From NCBI GenBank assembly GCA_002405805.1, contig DHMN01000028.1:4163-68162 (forward strand): a DNA stretch of 64,000 nucleotides, in the 5' to 3' direction. Below are positions 3,506 to 57,530 of this stretch, in pieces; positions within the stretch are counted from its first letter, which is position 1; the number at the start of each line of letters is the position of its first letter. The notes below the pieces were generated by a model. It was not told the DNA's origin and ran no database searches. It saw only the letters and a program-made list of their open reading frames with translations. The stretch is from Cyanobacteria bacterium UBA4641. Its GTDB lineage: Bacteria; Cyanobacteriota; Vampirovibrionia; Gastranaerophilales; Gastranaerophilaceae. Position numbers and translations under genes: made by a program.

Positions 3506-3537
3506 AGGCGCCTATGGCTAAAGCCATAGGCGCTTTC
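3506..3537 (+). terminator. Rho-independent terminator after the ABC operon
   Basis: Perfect 11-bp stem gcgcctatggc / gccataggcgc with loop taaa, followed by ttt. Confidence 0.7.
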
Positions 3538-3623
3538 AGAGGGGATGGGATTCGAACCCACGGTGAGGTTTCCCTCACACAACCTTTCCAAGATTGCACC
3601 TTAAACCGCTCGGACACCCCTCT
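3537..3623 (-). tRNA. tRNA-Ser (anticodon GGA)
   Basis: The reverse complement folds as a cloverleaf: acceptor AGAGGGG/CCCCTCT, anticodon stem CAATC/GGTTG with loop TTGGAAA, long variable arm GTGAGG-GAAA-CCTCAC, T-loop GGTTCGAATCC. CCA is not encoded. Confidence 0.9.
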
Positions 3624-3640
3624 ATATTAAATTTGTTATG

Positions 3641-3853
3641 CTAATTATCCTTTAAATGTTGAGTTTCGTCAAGTTCCAAAACCTCTTGTTGATAATACTC
3701 TTCTGTCTTTTCCAATTGATAAATCTTAGCATCAGCAAGTTTTTCCAAAACCTTGGCATAATCTGCACATTTTTTGCCTTTTACACCCTCAGTTTCCATT
3801 TGTATTGTTCCGTCAGGAAATAGTCTTATCTTCATTTTGCCCATATTTATCAA
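3641..3853 (-). CDS. DUF2997 family small protein
   Basis: 'KIRLFPDGTIQMETEGVKGKKCADYAKVLEKL...EKTEEYY' matches my memory of the DUF2997 consensus (i..dG.v.ie.eGvkG..C.d.t..le..lG....e.teEyy). Lies 6 nt downstream of the DUF1257-like gene. Confidence 0.75.
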   Translation of the reverse strand: MINMGKMKIRLFPDGTIQMETEGVKGKKCADYAKVLEKLADAKIYQLEKTEEYYQQEVLELDETQHLKDN

Positions 3854-3859
3854 CCATCC

Positions 3860-5122
3860 TTAAATATCAATTGTCAAAACTATTGAATTATCATCCATTA
3901 CGGTTTCAGATTCAAGTCGCATATTTTCACTGTCCAAACGTTCTTTTATTTTGTTATAAGTCATTTCTTGAATATTTAGCCCATACTCATCATTCAAGTC
4001 ATTAATCACACTTTCACATTCACTTTTGTTGGAGACTTGCGTAATATCAAGAGTGTAGCCGTTTGAACCGTCTTTTTTGTAATAAACCATTTCCATACCG
4101 AACAATTTACAAGAAACTTCATCTCCGTTTTCTGAAATTTCTTCTGCACCGTGCTCATACAAAGTATTCAACAAAGTACCCTTGTCGGTATAATTGGTTG
4201 TATAAGTATAAACCGTTGTAGAAATATCGTTAATTAGGCGCAAATCTCGACCTGCTGCGATATTCAATTTTCTAAAAATAATTTCAGCTTCCTTTGTAAT
4301 AGCACTATTATTGCTACCTGAAAATTCTGCCGTATAAAATCCATTTTTCAAAACCCAATTAAGGGTTGCATCGCTATTTTTTAAAGGAGTTTGGCAATCA
4401 GCCTCATAGAATAAATAATTTGACTTTCTAAGCAATGTCCTGAGTTCTTCCGGCTTGATATTTGTTTGAATTTTCAAATTCGTCAATCCGTAAGTAACAT
4501 TTACCCCTTCTGTCTTGCCACTCACCCCAATGTTCATAATTGTGACTTTTTGCTCAACTTCAAGTGTATAAGCTGCATCATATTCAGACTTAAAATATCT
4601 TACACTTTGACCGTTCAAATTTGCGACAACACCGTTATCTGCAGTTGTAAAAATTTGAGTTGCCCCTTCTTGTTTTAAAGCTGAATAAATTTCGCTAGGC
4701 TTTGTATAACTCGTATCATATTGATAATAAAAATACTCTTGCGAATCAATCAAGCGCACATTTCGTCCTATAATTGAATCTAAAGTTGCAAATAAACTTT
4801 CACCTTCATTTTGCAAACCTTCTGCACCGATGTTTCCTACCAAAGTAGCATAAACATATTTGCCACGAGTTTTCCATTGAACCCTCAGTCCTGAATCGAA
4901 ATAATACGTATCAGCGCTGACTTGAGTACAATTTACTTGTTCCATCGCAGGTTTCAACTCTTGAAACTCAATATTTGTTAATACTTTTATCAACTTTAAA
5001 TTTTTTGTTGCAACAGATTTATTTATCGCAGTATCATCTGCCGCACGTCTTAGAGTTTCATTTTTAGCTTTTTCCGGAGCTATCAAAAAAGCCATCGGAT
5101 AAGCCATCAGTGTAATTGACAT
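3860..5122 (-). CDS. Hypothetical protein with two ~170-aa internal repeats, DUF1257 (Ycf35)-like by context and pattern
   Basis: Internal duplication seen by eye: 'FATLDSIIGRNVRLIDS..YYQYDTSYTKPSEIYSALKQEGATQI..NGQSVRYFKSEYDAAYTLEVEQ' versus 'FRKLNIAAGRDLRLIND..YTYTTNYTDKGTLLNTLYEHGAEEI..FGMEMVYYKKDGSNGYTLDITQ'. The 'L..L...Ga..i......y.k..dg.Y.l' pattern resembles DUF1257. Sits between the AAA+ and DUF2997 genes. Confidence 0.45.
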   Translation of the reverse strand: MSITLMAYPMAFLIAPEKAKNETLRRAADDTAINKSVATKNLKLIKVLTNIEFQELKPAMEQVNCTQVSADTYYFDSGLRVQWKTRGKYVYATLVGNIGAEGLQNEGESLFATLDSIIGRNVRLIDSQEYFYYQYDTSYTKPSEIYSALKQEGATQIFTTADNGVVANLNGQSVRYFKSEYDAAYTLEVEQKVTIMNIGVSGKTEGVNVTYGLTNLKIQTNIKPEELRTLLRKSNYLFYEADCQTPLKNSDATLNWVLKNGFYTAEFSGSNNSAITKEAEIIFRKLNIAAGRDLRLINDISTTVYTYTTNYTDKGTLLNTLYEHGAEEISENGDEVSCKLFGMEMVYYKKDGSNGYTLDITQVSNKSECESVINDLNDEYGLNIQEMTYNKIKERLDSENMRLESETVMDDNSIVLTIDI

Positions 5123-5142
5123 TCTATTAACAAATCCTTTCT

Positions 5143-6765
5143 TTAGACATCCAAAGCTCTGCCACCGCGAGAGTTATTTATATCGCTGTTTTCATCTGTA
5201 CCAGTGCCATATTCTGCCATATCATCTTTTTTAGTAGCGGCAACAGCTCTGATATTTGCCCATTGTCGAAGTGACAAAATCTGTTCTTTTTGAGTGACTG
5301 AAAGCGGTACGACATTTTTTATTGTATTTTCTAAGTCTGAAAATTCCAACGGACGTTTATTGAAAAACGCCTCATATAAAGCTGTAATAACAACTTGTTC
5401 AATTTCTGCACCTACAAAACCTTCAGTCAAATCCGCAAGTTTTTCGTACAATTCGTCGTTTACGGTCAATTTGCTTGCAACTTCTTTGTCTTTCAATCTT
5501 TTTGCCAAGTGAAGTTTAAAAATTTCCTTACGTTCACGATGTGTCGGTAAATCAACAAAGAAAATTTCATCAAAACGGCCTTTACGCAGTAATTCTGCAG
5601 GAAGTCCACTGATATTGTTCGCCGTAGCGATTACAAAAACCGGTGCGGTCTTTTCTTGCATCCAAGTCAAAAATGTACCAAAAATTCTTGAAGATGTTCC
5701 GCTATCTCCGTTTGAATTGATACCACTCAAACTCTTTTCGATTTCATCAACCCAAAGAATGGATGGAGCAACGGCTTCAGCGGTTTTGATAGCTTTTCGC
5801 ATATTTTCTTCAGAACTTCCGACAATTCCTGAAAAGATTTTACCAAAATCTAATTTCAAAAGCGGTAATTGCCAAGCTGCACTCATTGCTTTTGCTGTCA
5901 AACTCTTACCACAACCGGGAACGCCTGTAATCAAAACACCTTTTGGTGCAGGAAGACAGTATTTTTTCGCAGCCTCTGACCAAGAATTATTCCTTTTGTT
6001 TAACCAGTTTTTAAGATTTTCAAGTCCGCCGACATCAGAAACTTTAATATCGGTATTAATAAATTCCAAAATGCCTGTTTTTTTTATAACCTGCATTTTT
6101 TCACTCAAAATCACTGCCAAATCTTTACCATCAATTCGTCCATCGTTTACCATAGCAAGAGCAAACGCGTTTTCTGCCTCTTGTAAAGTCAGCCCTAATG
6201 CAGCCTTGCATAGTTTTTCTTTTCCTTCATCATCCAAATCAGATGTATCAATTTGATTATTTTGAGAAATCATCTTATCTAATTTTGCCTTGATTTCATC
6301 CAGCGTTGGCAAAGGCATATCTAAAATCGTAATTTCTTTTTGCATAGATTCAGGGATAAGCAGTTCTGACGCAATAAAAATCACATTTTTTCTGAATTTA
6401 CTTGTTTTTAATTCAGGAATAAGGTCTCTCAATTTACGCACAACATTATAATCAACCTGTCTGCCTTTCACTCCAAAATAGACGTGAAAATCACACATTA
6501 CAAAAACGGCATTTTTATTACATTCTTTGATAAAATCAAGTGCTTTATCAGGACTGTTTGTCCCTTCAATCTTTTGACCGTTTAAAATAAAACCGTTTGT
6601 CTGAGTCCAAGTGTAAACATCACGAGTAACTCTTATCAACTTTTCTGATTGCGCAATTCTTTTGATTAAAGCCAACGCGCGTTCTTCTTCCCACGTAGTG
6701 ATATACAAATATGGGAAACGTGCCCTAAATAACCTTGACAATTGCATTATAACTTTATTATCCAT
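5143..6765 (-). CDS. AAA+ ATPase, Ycf46-like
   Basis: Walker A 'GVPGCGKSLTAKA', Walker B 'ILWVDEIEK', sensor-1 'VIATANN', Arg-finger region 'LLRKGRFDE'. The N-terminal 'FRARFPYLYITTWEEERA' resembles the start of cyanobacterial/plastid Ycf46 proteins (from memory). Confidence 0.8.
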   Translation of the reverse strand: MDNKVIMQLSRLFRARFPYLYITTWEEERALALIKRIAQSEKLIRVTRDVYTWTQTNGFILNGQKIEGTNSPDKALDFIKECNKNAVFVMCDFHVYFGVKGRQVDYNVVRKLRDLIPELKTSKFRKNVIFIASELLIPESMQKEITILDMPLPTLDEIKAKLDKMISQNNQIDTSDLDDEGKEKLCKAALGLTLQEAENAFALAMVNDGRIDGKDLAVILSEKMQVIKKTGILEFINTDIKVSDVGGLENLKNWLNKRNNSWSEAAKKYCLPAPKGVLITGVPGCGKSLTAKAMSAAWQLPLLKLDFGKIFSGIVGSSEENMRKAIKTAEAVAPSILWVDEIEKSLSGINSNGDSGTSSRIFGTFLTWMQEKTAPVFVIATANNISGLPAELLRKGRFDEIFFVDLPTHRERKEIFKLHLAKRLKDKEVASKLTVNDELYEKLADLTEGFVGAEIEQVVITALYEAFFNKRPLEFSDLENTIKNVVPLSVTQKEQILSLRQWANIRAVAATKKDDMAEYGTGTDENSDINNSRGGRALDV

Positions 6766-6785
6766 TAAAAAACCTCTTCTTGAAA

Positions 6786-7397
6786 CTATTTTACTCTATA
6801 TTTCTCAACTTGTAAACACAAATTTTCACTTATTTTGTTAAAATCCCCCATACCATTGAGTTCTAACCGTCCATCTTTTGATATTCGCGCCTCAATTTTG
6901 TTTTTATATTTTTGAAAAATCTCAGGGGTATAAAAATCTGTCAAAAAATGGTATCGCTGATTTGATGAGCCTACCCAAGGACGAGAAAGGTCAAATTTAT
7001 CTTGTTCAAAGCCTCCATCAATCAACAAATCAATATTTGAAAGTAACGAATCCACAAAGACATCATTTTTGTCTTTTAATTCTTCCAACAAATACCCTGT
7101 AAAACAAACAACTGAAAGCCCTTCACGTTTTATAAGTTTGGCTAATTTTGACAAACTTTTTGCCTGCTCAAACGGTTCTCCGCCCAGAAATGTAACCCCT
7201 TCAATATTATCTATTTGCGCAAAAATTTGTTTAAACAACGACTCTACAGAATATTTTTCACCGACACCAAAAGCCCAAGTATCTTTTGCCCAACAGCCTT
7301 TACAATGTTTTTTACATCCCTGAACCCAAATGCAAAACCTGTTTTCAGGACCTTCAACAGCAGTATTTGGAATTATTTTATAAACATCCAACAACAT
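6786..7397 (-). CDS. Radical SAM 4Fe-4S single-cluster protein, NrdG/activase-like
   Basis: 'VEGPENRFCIWVQGCKKHCKGCWAKDTW' carries the CxxxCxxC cluster motif. 'VTFLGGEPFEQ' and the C-terminal 'GSSNQR' are as in anaerobic RNR/glycyl-radical activases. Confidence 0.7.
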   Translation of the reverse strand: MLLDVYKIIPNTAVEGPENRFCIWVQGCKKHCKGCWAKDTWAFGVGEKYSVESLFKQIFAQIDNIEGVTFLGGEPFEQAKSLSKLAKLIKREGLSVVCFTGYLLEELKDKNDVFVDSLLSNIDLLIDGGFEQDKFDLSRPWVGSSNQRYHFLTDFYTPEIFQKYKNKIEARISKDGRLELNGMGDFNKISENLCLQVEKYRVK

Positions 7398-8332
7398 TAA
7401 AAATCAACAATCCTACCTTCTGAATAATCCTCTTCTTCATTTGGTTTTTGAGCCTCACCAAAAACTACCATAGGTTTGATTTTTTCAACAAAGTGTTCTT
7501 TCACATTCGCTACTTTTATAAAATCATCAAAACTTTTGAACAAACCGTTTGCATCACGATATTCAATAATTTTCTTAGCCATAACAATGTTTACCCCAGG
7601 AAGTATAGCAAGTTCACTGGCCGTAACGTTATTTACATCAATTTTCTTTGATGAATTTGCCATAATAGCATCTAATTCGTGAAACTCAGGAGCTTGTTCT
7701 TCGCGTTCAGTAACAGGTTTTTGCTCTTGTATGTTACTCATATCAACAAACGCAGCACCTGTGGCATTTGGATTCTCTGTACCTTTTGAATATGGGTCAG
7801 CCTGAATATTATCCATATCTACAAACTTCGGCCCTGAATTTGAGGTATCAATATTAACACTCTTTTTAACAGGAGTCGGAATTTTTGATTCAAGAGTGAT
7901 AATATCAATCTTTGTATCATAACTGTAAAAAGATGCCAAAGAATCTAATGTTATAAAACTGTCAAAAACTCGGCATACTCTGTTCCATGCTTTATTTATG
8001 TTTATATTACCTTTTTTTAGGGTGAACATACGTTTTGCGCGCCTTTTGTCAGGCTCATTATCCATAACAATAATTTTTTCATCAGGAGCATACATAACAG
8101 TACAGTGGTCATTTTTGATAGTATTTTGATTAACTACAAAAGTTTTTGGGACAATCTTTATACTGAATTTAAACACCTGATTTTGATAAATTGTAAAAAG
8201 AATGGCAATAGGTACCATTGCAACTAAAAATACTGCAAGCGCAAAATTGGCAATTGAACTGAAACCGATAACGCACATTGCAACATAAAAAACAAATAGT
8301 GTTAATATTCCTTGAATAATACGATATTTCAT
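7397..8332 (-). CDS. Membrane-anchored protein with a C-terminal ComEA-like helix-hairpin-helix DNA-binding domain
   Basis: Two N-terminal TM helices. C-terminus 'VNNVTASELAILPGVNIVMAKKIIEYRDANGLFKSFDDFIKVANVKEHFVEKIK' matches the ComEA HhH pattern. Internal short repeat 'FVDMDNIQ'/'FVDMSNIQ'. Its stop overlaps the next start (TAATG). Confidence 0.65.
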   Translation of the reverse strand: MKYRIIQGILTLFVFYVAMCVIGFSSIANFALAVFLVAMVPIAILFTIYQNQVFKFSIKIVPKTFVVNQNTIKNDHCTVMYAPDEKIIVMDNEPDKRRAKRMFTLKKGNININKAWNRVCRVFDSFITLDSLASFYSYDTKIDIITLESKIPTPVKKSVNIDTSNSGPKFVDMDNIQADPYSKGTENPNATGAAFVDMSNIQEQKPVTEREEQAPEFHELDAIMANSSKKIDVNNVTASELAILPGVNIVMAKKIIEYRDANGLFKSFDDFIKVANVKEHFVEKIKPMVVFGEAQKPNEEEDYSEGRIVDF

Positions 8333-8403
8333 ACACTAATACAATACCACACTCAAAAAATTTCAAATGATATATATAGATGATTTTATGATAAAATCTA
8401 GCT

Positions 8404-10729: not shown

Positions 10730-11500
10730 CTAAAATCTACTGATGATTTTTAAATATTCTTTTTGTGATTCTAAAAGCATCTCCGAAATAAAGTTTATAA
10801 AATCTGCGTTATTGCCTTTATTCGTTTTTTGTATTGTTGAAATGTAATCAGTCCTCACAACAGGCGGAATTACGACAATATTATATCCACTTTGCAATAA
10901 TGCTAAATTCATTAATAATCTTGCAACTCTGCCATTACCGTCTGGGAATGGATGAATGTTTACAAAAATTATATGCACCATTGCTGCATATTCAACAGGA
11001 TGCAATTTTTCTTTTAATTTTGGCAGTTGCAAAATGAACTCATGCATTTTTTCATCAAGTTCTTCCGGCTTTGGTAACTCTACATCCGAGCCGGTTATTA
11101 TGACTTGAGATGTTCTATATTTACCAGCCTTTTCGCTGTCTATTTTTTCATAAAATAATTTATGTAATAGCTTAATATCATCTTCTGTAAATGTTTTGTT
11201 TTTTGACAGTTCAATTATCTCATCAAAAGCTTTTGCATGTCCTACTGTTTCATAGTGGTCTTTTAGAGGTTTCCCGCCAATTGTAATACCATCTTCCAGC
11301 ACAACTTTTGTTTCTACTAGGCTAAGAGTGTTGCCTTCAAGTGCATTTGAGGCATAAGTCAAACCTATTTTGTAATACTCTTTTACTTGTGCCAATGCCT
11401 CATTTGACAAAGGCCTTAAAGCATTAATCCTTGCCTTGTATTCATCATTTTGAGCAAAACAGTTTCGATACATTTCTACCTCTTGAGTTAATTGTAGCAT
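10730..11500 (-). CDS. Fic family protein (class II, with N-terminal inhibitory motif)
   Basis: Fic core 'HPFPDGNGRVARLLMNLALLQSGY' (HxFx[DE]GNGRxxR). Upstream 'SNALEGN' matches the [ST]xxxE[GN] auto-inhibitory helix motif. Confidence 0.9.
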   Translation of the reverse strand: MLQLTQEVEMYRNCFAQNDEYKARINALRPLSNEALAQVKEYYKIGLTYASNALEGNTLSLVETKVVLEDGITIGGKPLKDHYETVGHAKAFDEIIELSKNKTFTEDDIKLLHKLFYEKIDSEKAGKYRTSQVIITGSDVELPKPEELDEKMHEFILQLPKLKEKLHPVEYAAMVHIIFVNIHPFPDGNGRVARLLMNLALLQSGYNIVVIPPVVRTDYISTIQKTNKGNNADFINFISEMLLESQKEYLKIISRF

Positions 11501-11509
11501 AAAAAGTGA

Positions 11510-12211
11510 CTATCTTAGATTTTTCAAATGTTGTAACTTTGTATATTCATCAACATTTGTAAATTTCAAAAGTGCATCATAAGTTTCATCCATTAAGTCT
11601 TTAGGTATTGAATAATTATTGGTTTCAGATAGTTTAGATATTATTTTTTCTTGTAAATTGCTATAATATGTAACAATAACATTACTCCGAGTTGTTACAT
11701 TTTTGAGTGTGCAATCATCTGAAAATGCAATTATTGAATAAATCGGAATTGTATCATCTATATATTTTCTTACCGCCCTAATATGTGTAGCATTTTGCAT
11801 TATTGGATTGTAAAACTGTTCTTTATGACTTTCACCATATCCTGTAGGTAAAGTTTGTGTCCATTTTTTATTATTTTCATTCCCAAATATCCAACCACTG
11901 TAATTTTTACTTTCTAAAACAAATAACCCTTTCTGATGAAACATAATTAAATCTATTTCAGAGGTTTTCCCACTTTCTCGTGGAACATATAAGTTAAATA
12001 AAAATTTACACCCAATTGTTTCAAAAAATTTTAAATTTTGATATAATTTGTATTCTCCATTCATTCCTTTATTAAATAATACAGACCAGTACGAATTATT
12101 CGTAATCTTGTAATAGTTACTATTTTTATATATTAACCCTTTTAAAACAAAACTAATTACAGGAATTGCCAGAAATAACAATATTAAACAAATTATAGTT
12201 ATATCATCCAT
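11510..12211 (-). CDS. NERD domain-containing protein with N-terminal TM anchor
   Basis: TM 'ITIICLILLFLAIPVISFVL'. NERD-like core 'EIDLIMFHQKGLFVLESKNYSGWIFGNENNKKW' (D..i......i.viE.Kn..G.i.g). Confidence 0.75.
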   Translation of the reverse strand: MDDITIICLILLFLAIPVISFVLKGLIYKNSNYYKITNNSYWSVLFNKGMNGEYKLYQNLKFFETIGCKFLFNLYVPRESGKTSEIDLIMFHQKGLFVLESKNYSGWIFGNENNKKWTQTLPTGYGESHKEQFYNPIMQNATHIRAVRKYIDDTIPIYSIIAFSDDCTLKNVTTRSNVIVTYYSNLQEKIISKLSETNNYSIPKDLMDETYDALLKFTNVDEYTKLQHLKNLR

Positions 12212-44754: not shown

Positions 44755-46320
44755 ATGGAACTAATTTTATACATTATTTATTTATACTTGATTATTTATA
44801 CAATTTACCTGTTCATTTTGGCTATGCGTAACCTAAAGGACAGACCTTTTTCTATTGAAAGAAAATATTCAAAGTTTGATGATGTAAAAAGAAATTTTGC
44901 GGTTATTATTTATAGCCACAACCATAAAGAATGTCTTGAACAATTGGTTGAACAAATCAAAATGCAGGATTATCCGTTAGCTGATTTCAAAGTATATGCA
45001 ATTCTTGATGACTGCAATGACGGTTCTGACAAGTTATTTGAAAATGACAATTTCGTACATGTTTTAAATATTCAAGATGTTGGAACTTTGGGCAAAAATC
45101 AATCAATTTCTATGCTTTTAGAAGAATTGAAAAAAGACGACTCAATTGATGCTTATGTATTTATTGACGGAATCCGAAAAATTGATGCAGACTTTTTAAC
45201 CCTTGCAAATGCAGCTCTAAATAAGGCTGATGCCGTAACAGGCGAACTTAATATTAGCAGAGACAATTTGGATATCGTTGACCAAATCAAAGCAGTTCAT
45301 AAAAAATATCTTGCAAATTTTTTCAAACAATCAAGAACATTATTAGGATTAGCTACACAAGTAGATTCCGGATTATTTATTATAAAAAAATCTGTTCTTG
45401 ATGAGACCGAAGGAATTAATTTTAAAGATATCAACAGCGAACTTGAATTTAGCTTGTTGTTATCTCAAACAGGTCACAAATGCGTTTATAATCCGAATAT
45501 TCAATCTTACATCTTGGGTCAAGATTGCACATTCAAAAAGCCGAGATTAACAAAAAGATTCAATTTATTAAAAAATAATTTCAAAAACATCAAATCAATT
45601 AATTTTCCATTCATTGAACATGTTTGTTCTTTATTGAATCCTAATTGCTGGATGTTAATTGCAGCTTATGCCATTTTGATTGCATATTCTTACCATTGTC
45701 AATTTATTGTAAAATGCAACATGGTTATTTTCTCTGCAATCGTACTTATGGCAGTGTTTGGAATAAGCTTAATTAATGCAAAATTGAATATGAAAGAAAT
45801 CAGCCTTTTGATGTTGTACCCAATTTATTCAATTTGCCATATTATCAAAAACTTTCCACCGGTGAGAGTTTTATTGAAAAAACTTGGGGCAAACACAGAC
45901 AAAGAAGTTGATAAACTTGCAATTGATGTTATGGTTCAAACAAAACACGGTGACAGAGGCTGTAAATTAGAATTCATTTCAACTGAAAGTGGATTGTCAA
46001 AAATCCGATTTATTTATAAAAATAAAAAATACACAACATCAGCTCATCTTAGAATGATTGATGCTTTACAACAATTGAAATCAAAGATGGAAGATTACGG
46101 CTTGACTCTAAAAATTTGCAGCTGCTGTAAAAACTTCACCTCTCGCGTTGACGGTTCAACAAATATGCTAAAAGGAGAATGTCACAATGAATTTCCTAGC
46201 CCATTGTTAAACGAACCTCGTCCGACATTGATTTGGAACTCTTGTTCTAGTTTTGAACCTGCTCCAATCAACAATTTCATTGAAGAAATGGCACAAGAAG
46301 TCGAACGCCAACAAGATTAA
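44755..46320 (+). CDS. Membrane-bound family-2 glycosyltransferase-like protein with an extra C-terminal Cys-containing domain
   Basis: N-terminal TM, GT-A start 'FAVIIYSHNHKECLEQLVEQIKMQDYP', 'ILDDCNDGSD', 'FIDGIRKID', about 3 TM helices at residues 300-370, then a ~150-aa domain with 'CSCCKNF...GECHNEF...WNSCSSF'. Confidence 0.6.
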   Translation: MELILYIIYLYLIIYTIYLFILAMRNLKDRPFSIERKYSKFDDVKRNFAVIIYSHNHKECLEQLVEQIKMQDYPLADFKVYAILDDCNDGSDKLFENDNFVHVLNIQDVGTLGKNQSISMLLEELKKDDSIDAYVFIDGIRKIDADFLTLANAALNKADAVTGELNISRDNLDIVDQIKAVHKKYLANFFKQSRTLLGLATQVDSGLFIIKKSVLDETEGINFKDINSELEFSLLLSQTGHKCVYNPNIQSYILGQDCTFKKPRLTKRFNLLKNNFKNIKSINFPFIEHVCSLLNPNCWMLIAAYAILIAYSYHCQFIVKCNMVIFSAIVLMAVFGISLINAKLNMKEISLLMLYPIYSICHIIKNFPPVRVLLKKLGANTDKEVDKLAIDVMVQTKHGDRGCKLEFISTESGLSKIRFIYKNKKYTTSAHLRMIDALQQLKSKMEDYGLTLKICSCCKNFTSRVDGSTNMLKGECHNEFPSPLLNEPRPTLIWNSCSSFEPAPINNFIEEMAQEVERQQD

Positions 46321-46357
46321 TTTGAAATACCTCAAAATCGGAGTGTATAATAAAACT

Positions 46358-47518
46358 ATGAAGAAAATCCTGAGCTTTATAATTATGTTTACAATGATAT
46401 TTTCTAATGCGCTAATGGTTACTGCCGATGAGCCTTTAAAAGGTACGGTTTCAGAAACCGGACAATACAAAAATGACCAAAGTGACATTTTTACAGGCAA
46501 AGTCGAAACCCTTAACCGCAAAGAAATAATAAACATGACCGTTTCACAGGTTTTGGATTCGTCCATTTCCATTGAAGGGGATGAGTTTTTCGCCGAAGTT
46601 ACGGATGATGTTTATAGCAACAAAGGCATAATCATTCCAAAAGGAACACTTGCACACGGAAAACTTACAAACACAACAGCTCCGGGAAGAATGGGTAAAG
46701 AGGCTACGATGGATTTGTCTTTTGACTATTTAGTCACTCCTGATGGGCGCGAAATTCCGATAGAAGGAACAATGACAACAAAACTTCACCCAGTAACTCA
46801 AGGTGCTAAAATTGTTGCTCAAGATGTTGGCTATACTGTTGCAGGTGGTGCTGTAGGTGGTCTGATGGCACTAAATTGGCTTGGACTGGGGGCTGCAATT
46901 GCATCTCAAGGATATACATTAGCAGGCGGTGCGGCAGTAGGCGGTGTTGCAGGTTTGAGCGTTGCACTAATCAGAAAAGGCAACCACGTACTAATTGCTC
47001 CCGGAGATGAAATTAAGGTTAAAATAAACACTTCTGTTGATTTACCTGTATATAAAGAAGATGCACTTAAACAAGAAGAAGTTTTGTATAAAGGTTTAGA
47101 CATAAATATAAATAACATAAAACACGAAAAAGACCCATTTGGGGAGGTTAATACAATTACTTTGACCGTTTTGATATCAAATATGTCGGACAAAACACTT
47201 TCCGGCTTTGATATGGCATTGGTAAACGATTACAACGCAAAATTCAGCCCATCAATTTTTGGAAACACAAAATTGATGTTTCGCCAAATAAAACCTGGCG
47301 ACAAGCTGGTTGAAAATGTTTCATTTGCCGTTGATAATATCAACAGAAAATATTGGTTGACTTTTTATGACAGAAAAACCAATCAGGTAATAACAAAAAT
47401 TTCTGTCGATAATGCTTACAGAAATTTACCGGAAAAAGTTAAAAAGAAAAACGAAAAAATACGAACAAAAAAACGTAATTACAAAAAAGACGAAGACTTT
47501 ATGGATATGGATTTTTAG
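46358..47518 (+). CDS. Secreted protein with a TrbI/VirB10-like beta module, a glycine zipper and a C-terminal domain (module paralog B)
   Basis: Signal 'MKKILSFIIMFTMIFSNALMVTA'. 'VLDSSISIEGDEFFAEVTDDVYSNKGIIIPKGTLAHGKLTNTTAPGRMGKEATMDLSFDYLVTPDGREIPIEG' resembles the TrbI/VirB10 barrel pattern. 'GYTVAGGAVGGLMALNWLGLGAAIASQGYTLAGGAAVGGVAG'. 'LIAPGDEIKVKI'. Lys-rich tail. Confidence 0.6.
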   Translation: MKKILSFIIMFTMIFSNALMVTADEPLKGTVSETGQYKNDQSDIFTGKVETLNRKEIINMTVSQVLDSSISIEGDEFFAEVTDDVYSNKGIIIPKGTLAHGKLTNTTAPGRMGKEATMDLSFDYLVTPDGREIPIEGTMTTKLHPVTQGAKIVAQDVGYTVAGGAVGGLMALNWLGLGAAIASQGYTLAGGAAVGGVAGLSVALIRKGNHVLIAPGDEIKVKINTSVDLPVYKEDALKQEEVLYKGLDININNIKHEKDPFGEVNTITLTVLISNMSDKTLSGFDMALVNDYNAKFSPSIFGNTKLMFRQIKPGDKLVENVSFAVDNINRKYWLTFYDRKTNQVITKISVDNAYRNLPEKVKKKNEKIRTKKRNYKKDEDFMDMDF

Positions 47519-51851: not shown

Positions 51852-53879
51852 TTATTCGTTACAACCGAATGCAATAGTAACGTGTTCCCTAGGATTTACT
51901 GCAGATATTTTATATCCGCGAGGGTCAACAAGGTAAGCAAATTCATCACCTGTAGTTTGGAACAAGCCCATAGTACCAGATAGAGCAGTTCTTGTTACGT
52001 CAATCGGTGCCTTAACGGTTTCAAACAAACCATCGCCCAAACTTCTTGCAGCAGCTCCGAATTGACCTTGGAAAGCGTGACCGAGCATATAACCTGCATC
52101 GTTAGATACGTTTTCTACAGCGTTACCAACGTTTGTGATGATACCGCCTGCAGTTCTACCGACAACACCAACCAAAGAACCTGCCCAAGTGAATGGCATT
52201 TCAACTACTCTTGCTACAGGGTTTACATTTTTAGATTTATTTACCTGAGCTTGCAAGATTTGTTTAGGTAATTTAGTTTTGCAATCACCGTTTTTGATTT
52301 CTGTGAAAGCAAGTTTCAATGCTCCTTTTTCACAGCCTGAAGGTCTGATTACTTCAACAACCTGACCTGTAACGGTTGAACCGCAAGGATAAGTTACGCC
52401 GTTGATAGTAATATCTTCAAGAGTGTTTGCTCTAAAGTATTGACCTACGTGAGAAGATTTTGCTGTCAATTGGTCAATCATTGAAAGTTTCAATGTTGGG
52501 ATTTTTACGATTTCTTCGTGTTCAATCAACGCATTTTTCTCTATCGGACAAGCAGGACAAATATTGTTTGCTGTTTTCGGATTTGTGTCATAACCAAGAG
52601 CTACACGAACAGTTTGCATCATTGATGCGATATCAGCACGAGATGCATCTTTGTTTGGCATAATCATGTTTGGTGTAGGTGAATCTTTCAATGCACCGTT
52701 TTGCAAAGATTTTGCTACAGGAATTCTTGCCCATTCAGGAACTTTGTTTCCGTCAGCATATTTGCTCAAGATTTCATTCGCTTTACATTTATCGATGTCA
52801 CAGTTCATACCTTTTGCAATTGATGTCAACGCTTCTACACGTGAAACATTTGCTTTTGGTTTGAATGTTTTGTTTGGATAACCTTTCAAAAGATTTTCGT
52901 CAACGGCTTTTGCAATTGCAACATTTGCCCAGTTGTTACGCGGAACATCTTTGAACATTGTTTGTCTATCCATATCACAATTCATGTTGAAACCTTTAAC
53001 AAGCATTGTTGCAAATTCAGCACGAGAGATGTTTCTGTTTGGCTTGAATAATCCATCAGGATAACCTACAACAACATCATTTGTTGCCAATTTGTCGATA
53101 TCACAAGCTGCCCAATGACTGTTAGGAACATCAGGGAACATACAACCGCCTAATGGAGCTGCTGCACCTGTGATATTTTGAATTTGTTGCGGAATTTCAT
53201 AAGGAATTAATGTCTTTTTAACCGCATTAATTGAATTTGCAGATTGAATGTCTATTGGACAAGCATTGCCATCCATTTTACGTTCGTTTCTGTCTATTGT
53301 TATACCATTATATTTGTTAGGCTCTTCGTTCAAGCATGGCATTTGAGCAGCCGCACCTGTAACTTGTCCGTCAGTTGCAACTGTTGCACCGCTGATGTTT
53401 GAAGACATTCTGCTTGCAGGACAGCCTTTCAATTGTTTTTCTGTTGAAAAGATTGAGTTTGCAGGTTCTCCGACATAGTTGTTTGTACCGTATACAGCTT
53501 GCGGATAGCCATAAACTTGTTTCATTTCAGCTTTGTCAGGTTTTCCTGTTTGCGGACACAATGCAGTTGATGGAACAGCTGGTTTGTCACAGCTTATTTC
53601 ATCAGGGCATCCGCAATCTTTCTTCTTGGCTGGACATGGGTCTTTTTTCTTGCAAGGTGCTTCTTGCTTTTTGCATCCACACTCAGGCAAAGCTTTTTTA
53701 CACTTTGTACAAGTTTGTGGTTGAGCTTGTTCCACAGGACATGCAGGACCTGTAACTACCGGTAATTGTTCGGCAGGTGCAGGTGTTTTGCATGGGCAAG
53801 CTGCCATTACTGGAGTCAAGGAACACGTTGCTATTCCAAGCGTAATAGCAGCTGCCAGAGTTAGTTTTTTAATTGACAT
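51852..53879 (-). CDS. SLH-domain envelope protein with an N-terminal Cys/Pro/Lys-rich region and a C-terminal beta plus glycine-rich module (module paralog C)
   Basis: Signal 'MSIKKLTLAAAITLGIATCSLTPVMA' (SD aaggagg). Three SLH repeats ('FPDVPNSHWAACDIDKLATNDVVVGYPDGLFKPNRNISRAEFATMLV', 'FKDVPRNNWANVAIAKAVDENLLKGYPNKTFKPKANVSRVEAL', 'YADGNKVPEWARIPVAKSLQNGAL'). C-terminal 'CGSTVTGQVVEVIRPSGCEKGALKLAFTEI' plus 'WAGSLVGVVGRTAGGIITNVGNAV'. Confidence 0.85.
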   Translation of the reverse strand: MSIKKLTLAAAITLGIATCSLTPVMAACPCKTPAPAEQLPVVTGPACPVEQAQPQTCTKCKKALPECGCKKQEAPCKKKDPCPAKKKDCGCPDEISCDKPAVPSTALCPQTGKPDKAEMKQVYGYPQAVYGTNNYVGEPANSIFSTEKQLKGCPASRMSSNISGATVATDGQVTGAAAQMPCLNEEPNKYNGITIDRNERKMDGNACPIDIQSANSINAVKKTLIPYEIPQQIQNITGAAAPLGGCMFPDVPNSHWAACDIDKLATNDVVVGYPDGLFKPNRNISRAEFATMLVKGFNMNCDMDRQTMFKDVPRNNWANVAIAKAVDENLLKGYPNKTFKPKANVSRVEALTSIAKGMNCDIDKCKANEILSKYADGNKVPEWARIPVAKSLQNGALKDSPTPNMIMPNKDASRADIASMMQTVRVALGYDTNPKTANNICPACPIEKNALIEHEEIVKIPTLKLSMIDQLTAKSSHVGQYFRANTLEDITINGVTYPCGSTVTGQVVEVIRPSGCEKGALKLAFTEIKNGDCKTKLPKQILQAQVNKSKNVNPVARVVEMPFTWAGSLVGVVGRTAGGIITNVGNAVENVSNDAGYMLGHAFQGQFGAAARSLGDGLFETVKAPIDVTRTALSGTMGLFQTTGDEFAYLVDPRGYKISAVNPREHVTIAFGCNE

Positions 53880-54136
53880 TTTTACCTCCTTGTTTGTGTG
53901 AGTTTTGTTTAAAATAAACAAAAGTTTTATTTAAAAAACAAACTTATACCAGATTATGTACTTTTCAGGAGGTTTAAAACATTAGCGAAAGTAACTATTC
54001 GACAGGCTAATATTTGAACTACTAATATTGTAACAATTTATTGCAAACACTTGCAATATAAGCAAAATTTTTGTATTCTATTTGTTTATATATATGTGTG
54101 TGAAGTTTCAAGCAGTTTACTGCGTGAAGGAGTGTT

Positions 54137-56159: not shown

Positions 56160-57530
56160 TTAACTCGGAGAAATGCAAGCGGTAATTGCATCGATTAACC
56201 TTTTTACCGGTACAATGTTAATCTTGTCATTGGTAATATTTCTGTTTGCGTAAGGGATAATCGCCTTCTTAAACCCTGATGTAACAGCTTCATTCAGCCG
56301 TTTTTCTATATTGCTAACCGGATGAATTTCGCCAGACAAACCGATTTCCCCAATGATTACCGTTTGAGGGTCAACCACAACATCGCGAGCACAAGTGGCA
56401 ATTGCAATAGCTATCCCCAAATCCGCACTCGGCTCATCAATTTCAATTCCGCCCATAACATTCACATAAACATCTTGTTTTGAAAGGTTTAAACCAACCC
56501 TTTTTTCCAATACCGCCAAAATTTGTAATAATCGGCTGTTATCGACCCCATTTGTCACTCGGCGCGGAGTCGGATATGGAGTAGTGCCGACAAGTGCCTG
56601 AATTTCAACCAAAAGCGGACGAGTTCCTTCGTTTGTAACAATGATAGCACTCCCTGGGATTGCATCTTGAGAACGCTCATTTAAAAACAATTCGTTCGGA
56701 TTTTTCACTTCCACAAGCCCTTGAGTTTGCATTTCAAAAATTCCGACTTCAGAAGTATTACCAAAGCGGTTTTTCATAGAGCGCAACATTCTGTAAGACT
56801 TGTATTTGTCGCCCTCAAACGAAATAACAGTATCTACCATGTGTTCTAAAATCTTTGGACCTGCGATATTACCGTCTTTTGTCACGTGACCGATTACGAT
56901 TGTTGTAATTCCGCGATTTTTGGCAATTTGCATCAAAATATTACAACATTCTCGAATTTGTGACACACTACCAGCGGAACTTGAAATAGTTTGAGAATAA
57001 ATCGCCTGAATACTGTCTATCACAATCATATCTGGTTGAAGTTCATCAATTTGAGCGCGAATACTTTCCAAGTTTGTTTGCGGATAAATATATAAATTTT
57101 CGGCATTTATTCCTAATCTGTTGGCACGAAGTTTCAATTGACTTGCGGATTCTTCCGCTGAAACATACAGGATTTTTTGACCGTTTTTGCACAATTCACC
57201 GCTTGTTTGGAGCAAAATTGTAGATTTACCGATTCCGGGGTCACCTGCAATCAACACAAGCGAACCTTGAACAAGTCCGCCCCCAAGTATTCTGTCAAAT
57301 TCAGAAATATTTGTACTTATTCTAACCTCTTCTCCGATATGAATATCATTGATTAGAGAAGGTTTTGTATCATTTGCAATCCCTTGCGGTGAGATATTTT
57401 GAGGTTTTAAATTGCTTTGGATTTCTTCCGTAAAACTTCCCCACGAACCACATTCAGGACATTTACCCAAATACCCTGCTGATTCATAACCGCATTGTTG
57501 ACATATCCATTTTGATTTTACTTTAGCCAT
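56160..57530 (-). CDS. radA: DNA repair protein RadA (Sms)
   Basis: Zinc ribbon 'CQQCGYESAGYLGKCPECGSWGSF', Walker A 'GDPGIGKST', 'KNRFG' motif, Lon-like C-terminal domain. Confidence 0.95.
   Translation of the reverse strand: MAKVKSKWICQQCGYESAGYLGKCPECGSWGSFTEEIQSNLKPQNISPQGIANDTKPSLINDIHIGEEVRISTNISEFDRILGGGLVQGSLVLIAGDPGIGKSTILLQTSGELCKNGQKILYVSAEESASQLKLRANRLGINAENLYIYPQTNLESIRAQIDELQPDMIVIDSIQAIYSQTISSSAGSVSQIRECCNILMQIAKNRGITTIVIGHVTKDGNIAGPKILEHMVDTVISFEGDKYKSYRMLRSMKNRFGNTSEVGIFEMQTQGLVEVKNPNELFLNERSQDAIPGSAIIVTNEGTRPLLVEIQALVGTTPYPTPRRVTNGVDNSRLLQILAVLEKRVGLNLSKQDVYVNVMGGIEIDEPSADLGIAIAIATCARDVVVDPQTVIIGEIGLSGEIHPVSNIEKRLNEAVTSGFKKAIIPYANRNITNDKINIVPVKRLIDAITACISPS

Follow-up and report, generated by a model that had tools for sequence, protein, structure and literature searches.

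The AAA+ ATPase Ycf46, Ycf35 (DUF1257) and the small protein DUF2997 are conserved in cyanobacteria, in the plastids of red algae, diatoms and other algae, and on many phages and plasmids, including those of the IncC group, and have no assigned biochemical function. What such proteins might do is a question raised anew by a stretch of 64,000 nucleotides (nt) from the human-gut bacterium Cyanobacteria bacterium UBA4641 (Gastranaerophilales; contig DHMN01000028.1; a 100% match to the metagenome-assembled genome MGYG-HGUT-04473), here called the window, which carries five minus-strand open reading frames (ORFs) at 3641-8332. These encode a membrane protein with a helix-hairpin-helix domain (HhH protein; 7397-8332, 311 amino acids (aa)), a radical S-adenosylmethionine enzyme (rSAM; 6786-7397, 203 aa), a Ycf46-type AAA+ ATPase (5143-6765, 540 aa), a protein of 420 aa (p420; 3860-5122) and a DUF2997 protein (3641-3853, 70 aa as listed, with a TTG start). 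An earlier reading of the letters alone (the sequence-only reading) had placed the genes at the same positions and described them as one tight cluster, which is borne out: three of the junctions leave 6, 20 and 20 nt between the genes, and at the fourth the stop codon of the HhH gene overlaps the start codon of the rSAM gene as TAATG at 7395-7399. Do these five genes belong together, and what kind of machine might they encode? They form one real conserved module, in an arrangement far beyond chance. For the second part of the question we infer, with a probability of about one half, a membrane-associated AAA+ protein-remodelling machine with tail docking and a protein-directed rSAM partner.

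The first line of evidence is the recurrence of the module. Linkage was counted over those loci in which 3 kb or more of sequence precedes the AAA+ gene, and a metagenome scan with a profile of pC, the unnamed family of which p420 is a lineage-specific expansion, gave 80 loci. All five families occur together in each of the 38 p420-type loci and in 24 of the 25 pC-type loci (62/63). The order aroA, HhH (1-3 copies) - rSAM - AAA - p420 - DUF2997 is kept in 49 Gastranaerophilales species genomes, and HhH homologues lie upstream of the rSAM gene in nearly all loci. Of the 78 HhH/rSAM junctions across all loci, 63 show an overlap of the HhH stop with the rSAM start, and by this arrangement of their codons the two genes are translationally coupled. 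The loci from the pC scan extend beyond one clade to other Gastranaerophilales, Vallitalea guaymasensis, V. maricola, a Clostridia metagenome-assembled genome (MAG) and Clostridium aciditolerans, and some of the module contigs have a G+C content (GC) of 54-61%. The gene order is permuted in several loci (L133-L139), including Vallitalea (L139), a contig related to the Clostridia MAG (L138) and high-GC contigs. Plasmids have other orders again: a Bacillus cereus megaplasmid carries rSAM - pC - HhH - AAA (63% identical) - DUF2997, and an Arthrobacter conjugative plasmid AAA - pC - DUF2997 - HhH-like - rSAM. Relatives with a true DUF1257 protein and an rSAM are found on Paenibacillus pPPM1a and on plasmids of B. 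thuringiensis and B. licheniformis. The rSAM is missing from the triads of Rhizobium phage RHph_I4, of Corndog-like and SM1-like phages, of a Geminocystis plasmid and of the IncC backbone. The rSAM and HhH genes thus travel with the AAA+/DUF2997 core across phyla, and their adjacency to it is not peculiar to this genome, as a chance juxtaposition would have it.

Several loci on the edge of this distribution deserve mention in their own right. On plasmid pTRESU01 of Treponema succinifaciens (L056, 1-14100), genes for a contractile injection system (VgrG/Pvc8 and baseplate) surround an rSAM-AAA+ pair whose members are 37% and 47% identical to those of the window; pC, DUF2997 and HhH proteins were not detected at that locus. 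The typical Gastranaerophilales arrangement was also met in MAGs labelled Methanomethylophilaceae archaeon, Clostridium sp. and Muribaculaceae (L022, L030 and L043), and the pC cluster of another locus (L078) includes records named Acinetobacter sp.; these labels are likely binning or naming errors. A phage origin of the pC-type module was considered and rejected, a single IMG/VR contig having been matched.

The second line of evidence is a C-terminal tail shared by the AAA+ protein and the HhH paralogues, which is a new feature found here. The motif was defined as R-x-[LIVM]-[DE]-hydrophobic at the extreme C-terminus, with the other ORFs of at least 150 aa as background. It ends 106 of 111 distinct AAA+ and 99 of 103 distinct HhH-family sequences against 4 of 944 background ORFs, all four of which lie inside modules, and it ends no rSAM, pC or DUF2997 protein across the loci. 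In the window, the HhH protein ends in EGRIVDF, with the tail RIVDF encoded at 7400-7414 (minus strand), and the AAA+ protein carries the same R-x-L-D-hydrophobic motif as RGGRALDV (5146-5169, minus strand). Within a sample that is small and not phylogenetically independent, AAA+ tails with 'RGGR' or the GG doublet occur only in the pC/rSAM-linked branch.

Near its N-terminus the HhH protein has a hairpin of two helices. A variable middle part comes next, then a C-terminal HHH_3 domain and an acidic linker, and the tail closes the chain. The HHH_3 domain, a ComEA-type helix-hairpin-helix (residues 228-288; 7469-7651, minus strand), is matched by PF12836 with 61.7 bits (cutoff 27, E 6.9e-17), and Pfam finds no family besides HhH-type domains in the protein. 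The hydrophobic hairpin, a Kyte-Doolittle segment of two transmembrane (TM) helices (residues 3-54; 8171-8326, minus strand), is preceded by MKYR and followed by K-rich sequence, and by the positive-inside rule the protein is predicted to have its N- and C-terminus inside and its HhH domain in the cytoplasm. The sequence-only reading had called this protein ComEA-like, which holds for the HHH_3 domain and the membrane anchor, but not for the comE model TIGR01259, with which it scores 49.4 against a cutoff of 152.35, nor for the predicted cytoplasmic position of the HhH domain. Within the module it is the HhH genes that evolve fast (33-60% identity) and vary in copy number, with 1-9 paralogues per locus (1-3 in Gastranaerophilales), some of them with GYF_2 domains. 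One locus (L135, 2254-14069) has nine tandem HHH_3 proteins around an rSAM-AAA-pC core, several with GYF_2 domains and most with GRMVDY or VRRIEF tails. In Paenibacillus, the two proteins that follow the rSAM are TM proteins without an HhH domain, and they end in SRVIHF and KRVIRL. Tail-bearing membrane proteins that lack an HhH domain imply that DNA binding is an add-on and not the core of the module, and the earlier suggestion of a nucleic-acid-directed machine is weakened by this related module.

The AAA+ protein was read as Ycf46-type, and this is supported over its full length: it is 44% identical to a 'hypothetical protein YCF46' of Stanieria (BLASTP, E 5e-134, residues 8-502 of 540). 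An N-domain peculiar to the family (about residues 1-235) is followed by one AAA module (PF00004, 103.8 bits, E 1e-29), a lid (AAA_lid_3), a variable linker and the C-terminal tail. The Walker A motif GVPGCGKS is present, and D340/E341 (Walker B), N383 (sensor 1) and R394/R397 (Arg fingers) are invariant in 15 diverse homologues. As judged by these features, the protein is a classical-clade AAA+ ATPase and a homologue of Ycf46 including the N-domain, with its ATPase motifs intact. Among solved structures, the VAT and p97 D2 domains come closest to it, and a PDB profile search with the N-domain returned nothing; among phage proteins the ATPase matches phrog_8638 (E 8e-146), a family of unknown function. 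Over the 49 Gastranaerophilales genome loci the AAA+ protein is 84-93% identical except in L052 (76%), and AroA is 64-77% identical. This slow evolution at all but one locus, together with the fixed chromosomal site, suggests a core cellular role in the order and not a defence island, while the wider AAA+ family is clearly mobile. The module is best explained as one that spreads horizontally and that, within the Gastranaerophilales, keeps a fixed place in the chromosome and is passed on vertically.

Canonical chromosomal Ycf46 proteins are 74-79% identical between cyanobacteria and Chloroflexota (L148, 6001-12136; L149, 6001-13521; L150, 6001-13533). Their genes are followed by genes for WD40/HEAT proteins and then by GrpE in Stanieria and on a further contig of 1.3 Mb, and by Hsp70 in Chloroflexota and on that same contig; this WD40/HEAT-GrpE-Hsp70 context, a conserved cluster separate from the module, is absent from the window.

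The rSAM enzyme, described earlier as NrdG-like, indeed has NrdG (TIGR02491) as its best NCBIfam model, yet with 119 bits it stays below the equivalog cutoff of 126.1, and eight homologues from other modules score 45-119 bits, so that all nine fall below it. Pfam matches are to Fer4_12 (127 bits, E 8e-37) and Radical_SAM (34.3 bits), and the best solved relative in the PDB is PFL-AE. The CX3CX2C cluster motif, read from the translation as C28-KKH-C32-KG-C35 (7293-7316, minus strand), is conserved in 77 distinct homologues; GGEPFEQ, with the SAM-binding GGE motif, and the xGPxxR loop are conserved as well, as is a module-specific C-terminal extension of about 50 aa. An NrdD or Gly_radical domain was found neither in the Pfam-annotated module loci nor among the ten largest ORFs of the window, and the only glycyl radical enzyme beside the rSAM at any locus is an unrelated PFL with its own activase (L001). 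By its sequence features, the rSAM is of the glycyl-radical-activase type and no NrdG equivalog.

The identity of p420 is where the sequence-only reading did not hold, since it had called the protein DUF1257-like. No Pfam, NCBIfam, PADLOC or PHROG match was found for p420, and Pfam DUF1257 gave none at E <= 0.1. The protein has an internal duplication, in which residues 40-125 resemble 214-295 and 126-200 resemble 296-365 (E about 1e-9); relative to the pC family it is expanded in tandem to (A-B)x2. A search of 1.84 billion representatives with a p420 profile gave 391 relatives, most of them of 150-190 aa, and the only part matched by most relatives (about 380 shorter proteins) is residues ~305-420; intermediates of 240-275 aa carry one A-B pair. 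In 48 of the other Gastranaerophilales species genomes p420 is 57-95% identical, and in the most divergent one (L052) 44%. A typical pC protein starts with a hydrophobic MSxTxxAxPxxLL segment, TM-like in 76 of 94 pC proteins, which is followed by one beta-alpha-beta4-alpha-beta2 domain.

Although pC has a predicted topology similar to that of DUF1257, a common family was supported by none of the tests: Pfam searches for DUF1257 (PF06868) with p420 and 70 relatives were not significant; 5 of 60 pC relatives had weak Pfam matches (best E 0.016); hhalign against a 28-sequence DUF1257 alignment gave E 0.049 and 0.036 under standard and greedy settings, with a probability of about 1%; and jackhmmer searches returned nothing beyond the family of their own seed, whether an IncC pC-type protein or DUF1257 proteins served as the start. 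Thus, by the Pfam and the profile-profile comparison, pC is a separate unnamed family. It shares with DUF1257 its place: p420 or pC adjoins AAA+ in 111 junctions and DUF2997 in 116, and in Paenibacillus that position is taken by a true DUF1257 protein, whose partners are likewise the AAA+ protein, DUF2997 and the rSAM. Such an analogy of position is not in itself evidence of homology. On the IncC plasmid p52905-KPC (L142, 4947-7535), the order is AAA+ - hyp109 - a 130-aa pC-family protein - DUF2997, just upstream of type IV secretion genes, and the AAA+ gene of the conserved IncC backbone is present on hundreds of Enterobacterales plasmids.

For the smallest protein, the proposed assignment to DUF2997 is confirmed by PF11211, which scores 43.1 bits (cutoff 24.1, E 3.9e-11) over residues 9-54. 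Its conserved signature consists of G-x-K-G-x-x-C and EYY, of which G-x-x-G-x-x-C is common to DUF2997 proteins of phages and of IncC and cyanobacterial plasmids. An ATG at 3844 lies behind an AAGGA box and is probably the true start, rather than the listed TTG at 3853; the gap to p420 would then become 15 nt.

How might these parts work together? In the protein-remodelling machine that we favour, a hexamer of the AAA+ protein with pC or p420 and DUF2997 would unfold or remodel proteins on the inner side of the membrane, a role for the family that is supported by the position of canonical Ycf46 genes beside those for GrpE and Hsp70. By analogy with other ATPases, the membrane HhH proteins would dock to the AAA+ protein, or become its clients, through the putative C-terminal docking tail, while the AAA+ protein's own tail might compete for the same putative site or link rings. 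The HhH domain could bring DNA to the membrane site of the ATPase. The activase-like rSAM would act on a protein partner and not on a small molecule; candidate targets are the tails and the GG of the AAA+ tail, and their modification would switch the machine on or off.

Some observations weigh against this reading or parts of it. The rSAM is lacking from two Gastranaerophilales loci (L012 and L044), and one pC-type locus (L108) has neither rSAM nor HhH. The protein p420 itself does not have a TM-grade N-terminal segment. The residue before the invariant Arg of the HhH tails in the rSAM-adjacent copies is G in 45, E in 23, D in 4 and N in 1, and since Gly is not conserved there, a glycyl radical at this place is unlikely; as a candidate it was rejected, about 40% of these copies having E, D or N in place of Gly. 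Moreover, R/L/D-like tails are retained by AAA+ relatives that have no rSAM beside them, namely those of IncC plasmids, Corndog-like phages and RHph_I4, so that the receptor of the tail is probably not the rSAM. For both reasons, a tail-directed radical modification is rated a minority possibility. A stricter version, in which the AAA+ machine is gated by radical chemistry, the rSAM recognizing and modifying the shared tails (R-V/I-V/I-D-F and RGGRxLD-F, as mimics of the RVxG-Y/F loop of glycyl radical enzymes) and so controlling the docking of membrane-tethered DNA-binding clients to the Ycf46-type unfoldase, is unlikely.

An alternative is that the module is a conflict system, either for anti-phage defence or for counter-defence or maintenance of plasmids and phages, in which two-TM (2TM) HhH effectors sense DNA and diversify as tandem copies, the AAA+ protein controls them and the rSAM makes or triggers a toxic product. 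The AAA+ family is abundant on mobile elements, with near-full-length matches in 632 plasmid and 51 phage records besides phrog_8638, modules lie on megaplasmids and conjugative plasmids, and the HhH paralogues vary in number and evolve fast; the AAA+ protein also has weak IetA matches and the TM region a weak 2TM-effector match. However, no defence model of PADLOC or NCBIfam rises above noise: the IetA match (74 bits) is limited to the AAA core, the IteA model scores 59 where its cutoff is 510, and for the 2TM match E is 0.006. The module is universal in the Gastranaerophilales loci found, at one site between aroA and tRNA-Ser and with ordinary GC, its AAA+ protein evolves more slowly than AroA, unlike what is seen in defence islands, and a single viral contig has the pC-type module. 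We therefore consider a conflict system unlikely. Known defence systems were also searched for as such (PADLOC-DB 2.0 and NCBIfam) and rejected: the matches comprised the AAA core of IetA and TRIP13, a generic rSAM match to pVip (E 2e-5) and the 2TM match, and p420 and DUF2997 had no match in PADLOC-DB 2.0.

A membrane-bound machine for handling DNA, be it for tethering, segregation, uptake or repair, would have the HhH protein and a TBP-like p420 bind DNA and the AAA+ protein remodel the nucleoprotein. It would fit with the presence of HHH_3 in nearly all pC-type modules and with mobile-element relatives near replication, partition or conjugation genes. The case for a TBP-like p420 comes from its structure model: the AlphaFold2 model shows beta-alpha-beta4-alpha units, and TBP chains dominate a Foldseek search of the PDB (best E 8e-4, probability ~1, 170 columns), in agreement with the repeats of that topology. 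Yet the match is weak (TM-score 0.36, root-mean-square deviation about 8 A), the model has a predicted local distance difference test (pLDDT) score of only 65, and against the viral library BFVD p420 had weak TBP-like matches at best, while a better pC model gave nothing below E 0.01. The tail-bearing Paenibacillus membrane proteins without an HhH domain also argue against DNA handling as the central activity, and this explanation leaves no role for the rSAM. It is, like a conflict system, improbable.

The module could also serve proteostasis in response to redox state or oxygen, with the rSAM acting mainly as an Fe-S sensor or a reductant-coupled switch of a stress-induced chaperone of the Ycf46 type. 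The clustering of canonical Ycf46 with GrpE and Hsp70 would suit this view, the ycf46 operon of Synechococcus is induced by severe oxidative stress (bioRxiv 10.1101/2025.07.21.665879), and in cyanobacteria DUF2997 and ycf35 form a cluster with the ferredoxin gene fed7 (duf2997-ycf35-fed7; PMC4284462). An Fe-S protein hence accompanies these DUFs in two unrelated forms, the rSAM here and Fed7 in cyanobacteria. Against it stands the activase signature of the rSAM, which is complete (GGEP SAM-binding motif and xGPxxR loop) and argues for catalysis and not for sensing alone; there are no chaperone genes in the window, and the HhH proteins and the tail are left unexplained, which makes this explanation doubtful. 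Finally, a chance or syntenic juxtaposition of a housekeeping NrdG and a competence ComEA beside an unrelated AAA/DUF triad, for which the near-cutoff score of the best model NrdG, the generally conserved gene order around aroA in the clade and a 1.4-kb insertion between rSAM and AAA+ in two relatives could be cited, is largely refuted and very improbable in view of the co-occurrence in unrelated phyla and plasmids in permuted order, the nine of nine module rSAMs under the NrdG cutoff, the lack of NrdD among the ten largest window ORFs, the C-terminal motif that the HhH proteins share with AAA+ and a score far below that of the comE model.

The surroundings of the module are those of an ordinary chromosome, and its GC of 0.33-0.39 is the same as that of the flanks. 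On one side lie tRNA-Ser(GGA) and an ABC-2 transporter, on the other a divergent aroA and genes for RNase HII, Fic, NERD and LuxR-type proteins. The tRNA-Ser(GGA) gene (3536-3624, minus strand; ARAGORN) is 16 nt past the DUF2997 stop on the same strand and may be co-transcribed with the module; it is kept at the same place in 27 of 29 p420-type loci (about 11480-11650 in L001-L053) and is absent from the pC-type loci checked. Just past this tRNA gene, one relative (L002) carries a Mu-like transposase/TniB element.

A scan of the cluster found no convincing intrinsic terminator between the five genes. Terminator-like sites numbered 3 against 2.8 +/- 1.7 in shuffled controls, and promoter-like sites 26 against 18.4 +/- 3.8; with counts this near to the controls, the scans do not settle the operon structure. 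A candidate sigma-70-like promoter (8367-8394, minus strand; a weak match of 9/12 in the consensus scan) lies in the 71-nt divergent spacer between HhH and aroA, and another promoter-like site (6788-6816, minus strand; 10/12), a possible internal promoter, is found where the rSAM gene ends, shortly before AAA+. The same rSAM-AAA+ junction is the point of the 1.4-kb insertion in the two relatives L002 (7015-8072) and L010, which encodes a 172-aa protein of no family and an HTH_3 regulator.

Elsewhere in the window, a Fic/DOC protein (256 aa) and a NERD nuclease-related protein (233 aa) adjoin at 10730-12211 (minus strand), with the LuxR-type regulator next to them; the GC is low around them (0.27 at 11501-12000), and this stretch may be a small accessory or toxin-like island. 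Two large ORFs in overlapping frames (521 aa and 421 aa) at 44755-47518 (plus strand) match no Pfam family at E <= 1e-5. A 689-aa SLH-domain protein (51852-53921, minus strand) fits a diderm envelope with an S-layer, and a RadA/Sms-like protein (56160-57530, minus strand) combines a KaiC/RecA-type ATPase, a zinc ribbon and a Lon_C domain.

The sequence-only reading had singled out the cluster as an undescribed system, and the literature found on these families agrees with this: papers that mention DUF2997, DUF1257, Ycf46 or Ycf35 do so incidentally and contain no description of the module, in a search whose coverage was not exhaustive. The core of a Ycf46-type AAA+ protein and DUF2997 thereby gains three partners, namely an activase-like rSAM, membrane proteins with the same tail and an unnamed family in the slot of DUF1257. 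From this, concrete hypotheses follow on the receptor of the tail, the protein substrate of the rSAM and recruitment to the membrane, and the B. cereus and Paenibacillus plasmids as well as cultured Vallitalea offer tractable sources of the module. For the uncultured Melainabacteria of the human gut, the module is a conserved and apparently core feature. If the reading of a radical-gated AAA+ machine were true, it would be the first biochemical handle on Ycf46, Ycf35 and DUF2997, families conserved from plastids to phages.

Compared with known systems, the module is rated as built of partly known domains and as fitting no characterised kind. ComEA resembles the HhH protein in the C-terminal HHH_3 domain and the N-terminal membrane anchor, but requires an extracytoplasmic DNA-binding domain, while the window protein has a two-helix hairpin, an HhH domain predicted to face the cytoplasm and the R-x-hydrophobic-D-hydrophobic tail, and its family forms tandem sets of 1-9 paralogues, some with GYF_2. 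IetAS/SgiAT pairs consist of an AAA+ ATPase and a subtilisin-like protease that form a defence or toxin-antitoxin pair on mobile elements (PMC10954446). Their AAA+ protein is of the same broad SpoVK/Ycf46/Vps4 group, and weak IetA matches occur here; however, it is only in the AAA core that the two are similar (74.6 bits), the AAA+ protein stays far below the cutoff of 510 of IteA in NCBIfam, and the module has no protease partner.

With the NrdG and PFL-AE activases the rSAM shares the Fer4_12 fold, the CX3CX2C and GGEP motifs, the xGPxxR loop and a small open barrel that suits a protein substrate, and the tail R-V/I-V/I-D-F resembles the RVxG-Y/F substrate loop of activases. It differs from them in its NrdG score below the cutoff, the C-terminal extension of about 50 aa, the lack of Asn after the third Cys (CWAK, not C-x-N) and, except for L001, of an adjacent glycyl radical enzyme. 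The tail also has parallels among docking peptides: the C-terminal LRVVK of SspB docks on ClpX, and HbYX tails dock on the 20S proteasome. These too are short conserved peptides at the extreme C-terminus after a flexible linker, borne by several partners of one ATPase, although in the module the motif sequence differs, the ATPase itself bears the tail and there is no protease gene.

The closest kinship is with Ycf46 and its neighbourhood. The AAA+ protein resembles Ycf46 over its whole length, including the N-domain, with one classical AAA module and lid in a very slowly evolving family, and differs by its RGGRxLD-hydrophobic tail; the canonical genes were not found with rSAM, HhH, pC or DUF2997 in the chaperone-linked contexts examined. 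Compared with the AAA+/DUF1257 (Ycf35)/DUF2997 neighbourhood of RHph_I4, the Geminocystis plasmid and pPPM1a, the middle protein of the window is not DUF1257 by any test but pC, as in the IncC backbone. In both arrangements a small beta-alpha-beta protein stands between an AAA+ protein of this one family and DUF2997, and the Paenibacillus, B. thuringiensis and B. licheniformis versions of that neighbourhood also have an NrdG-like rSAM.

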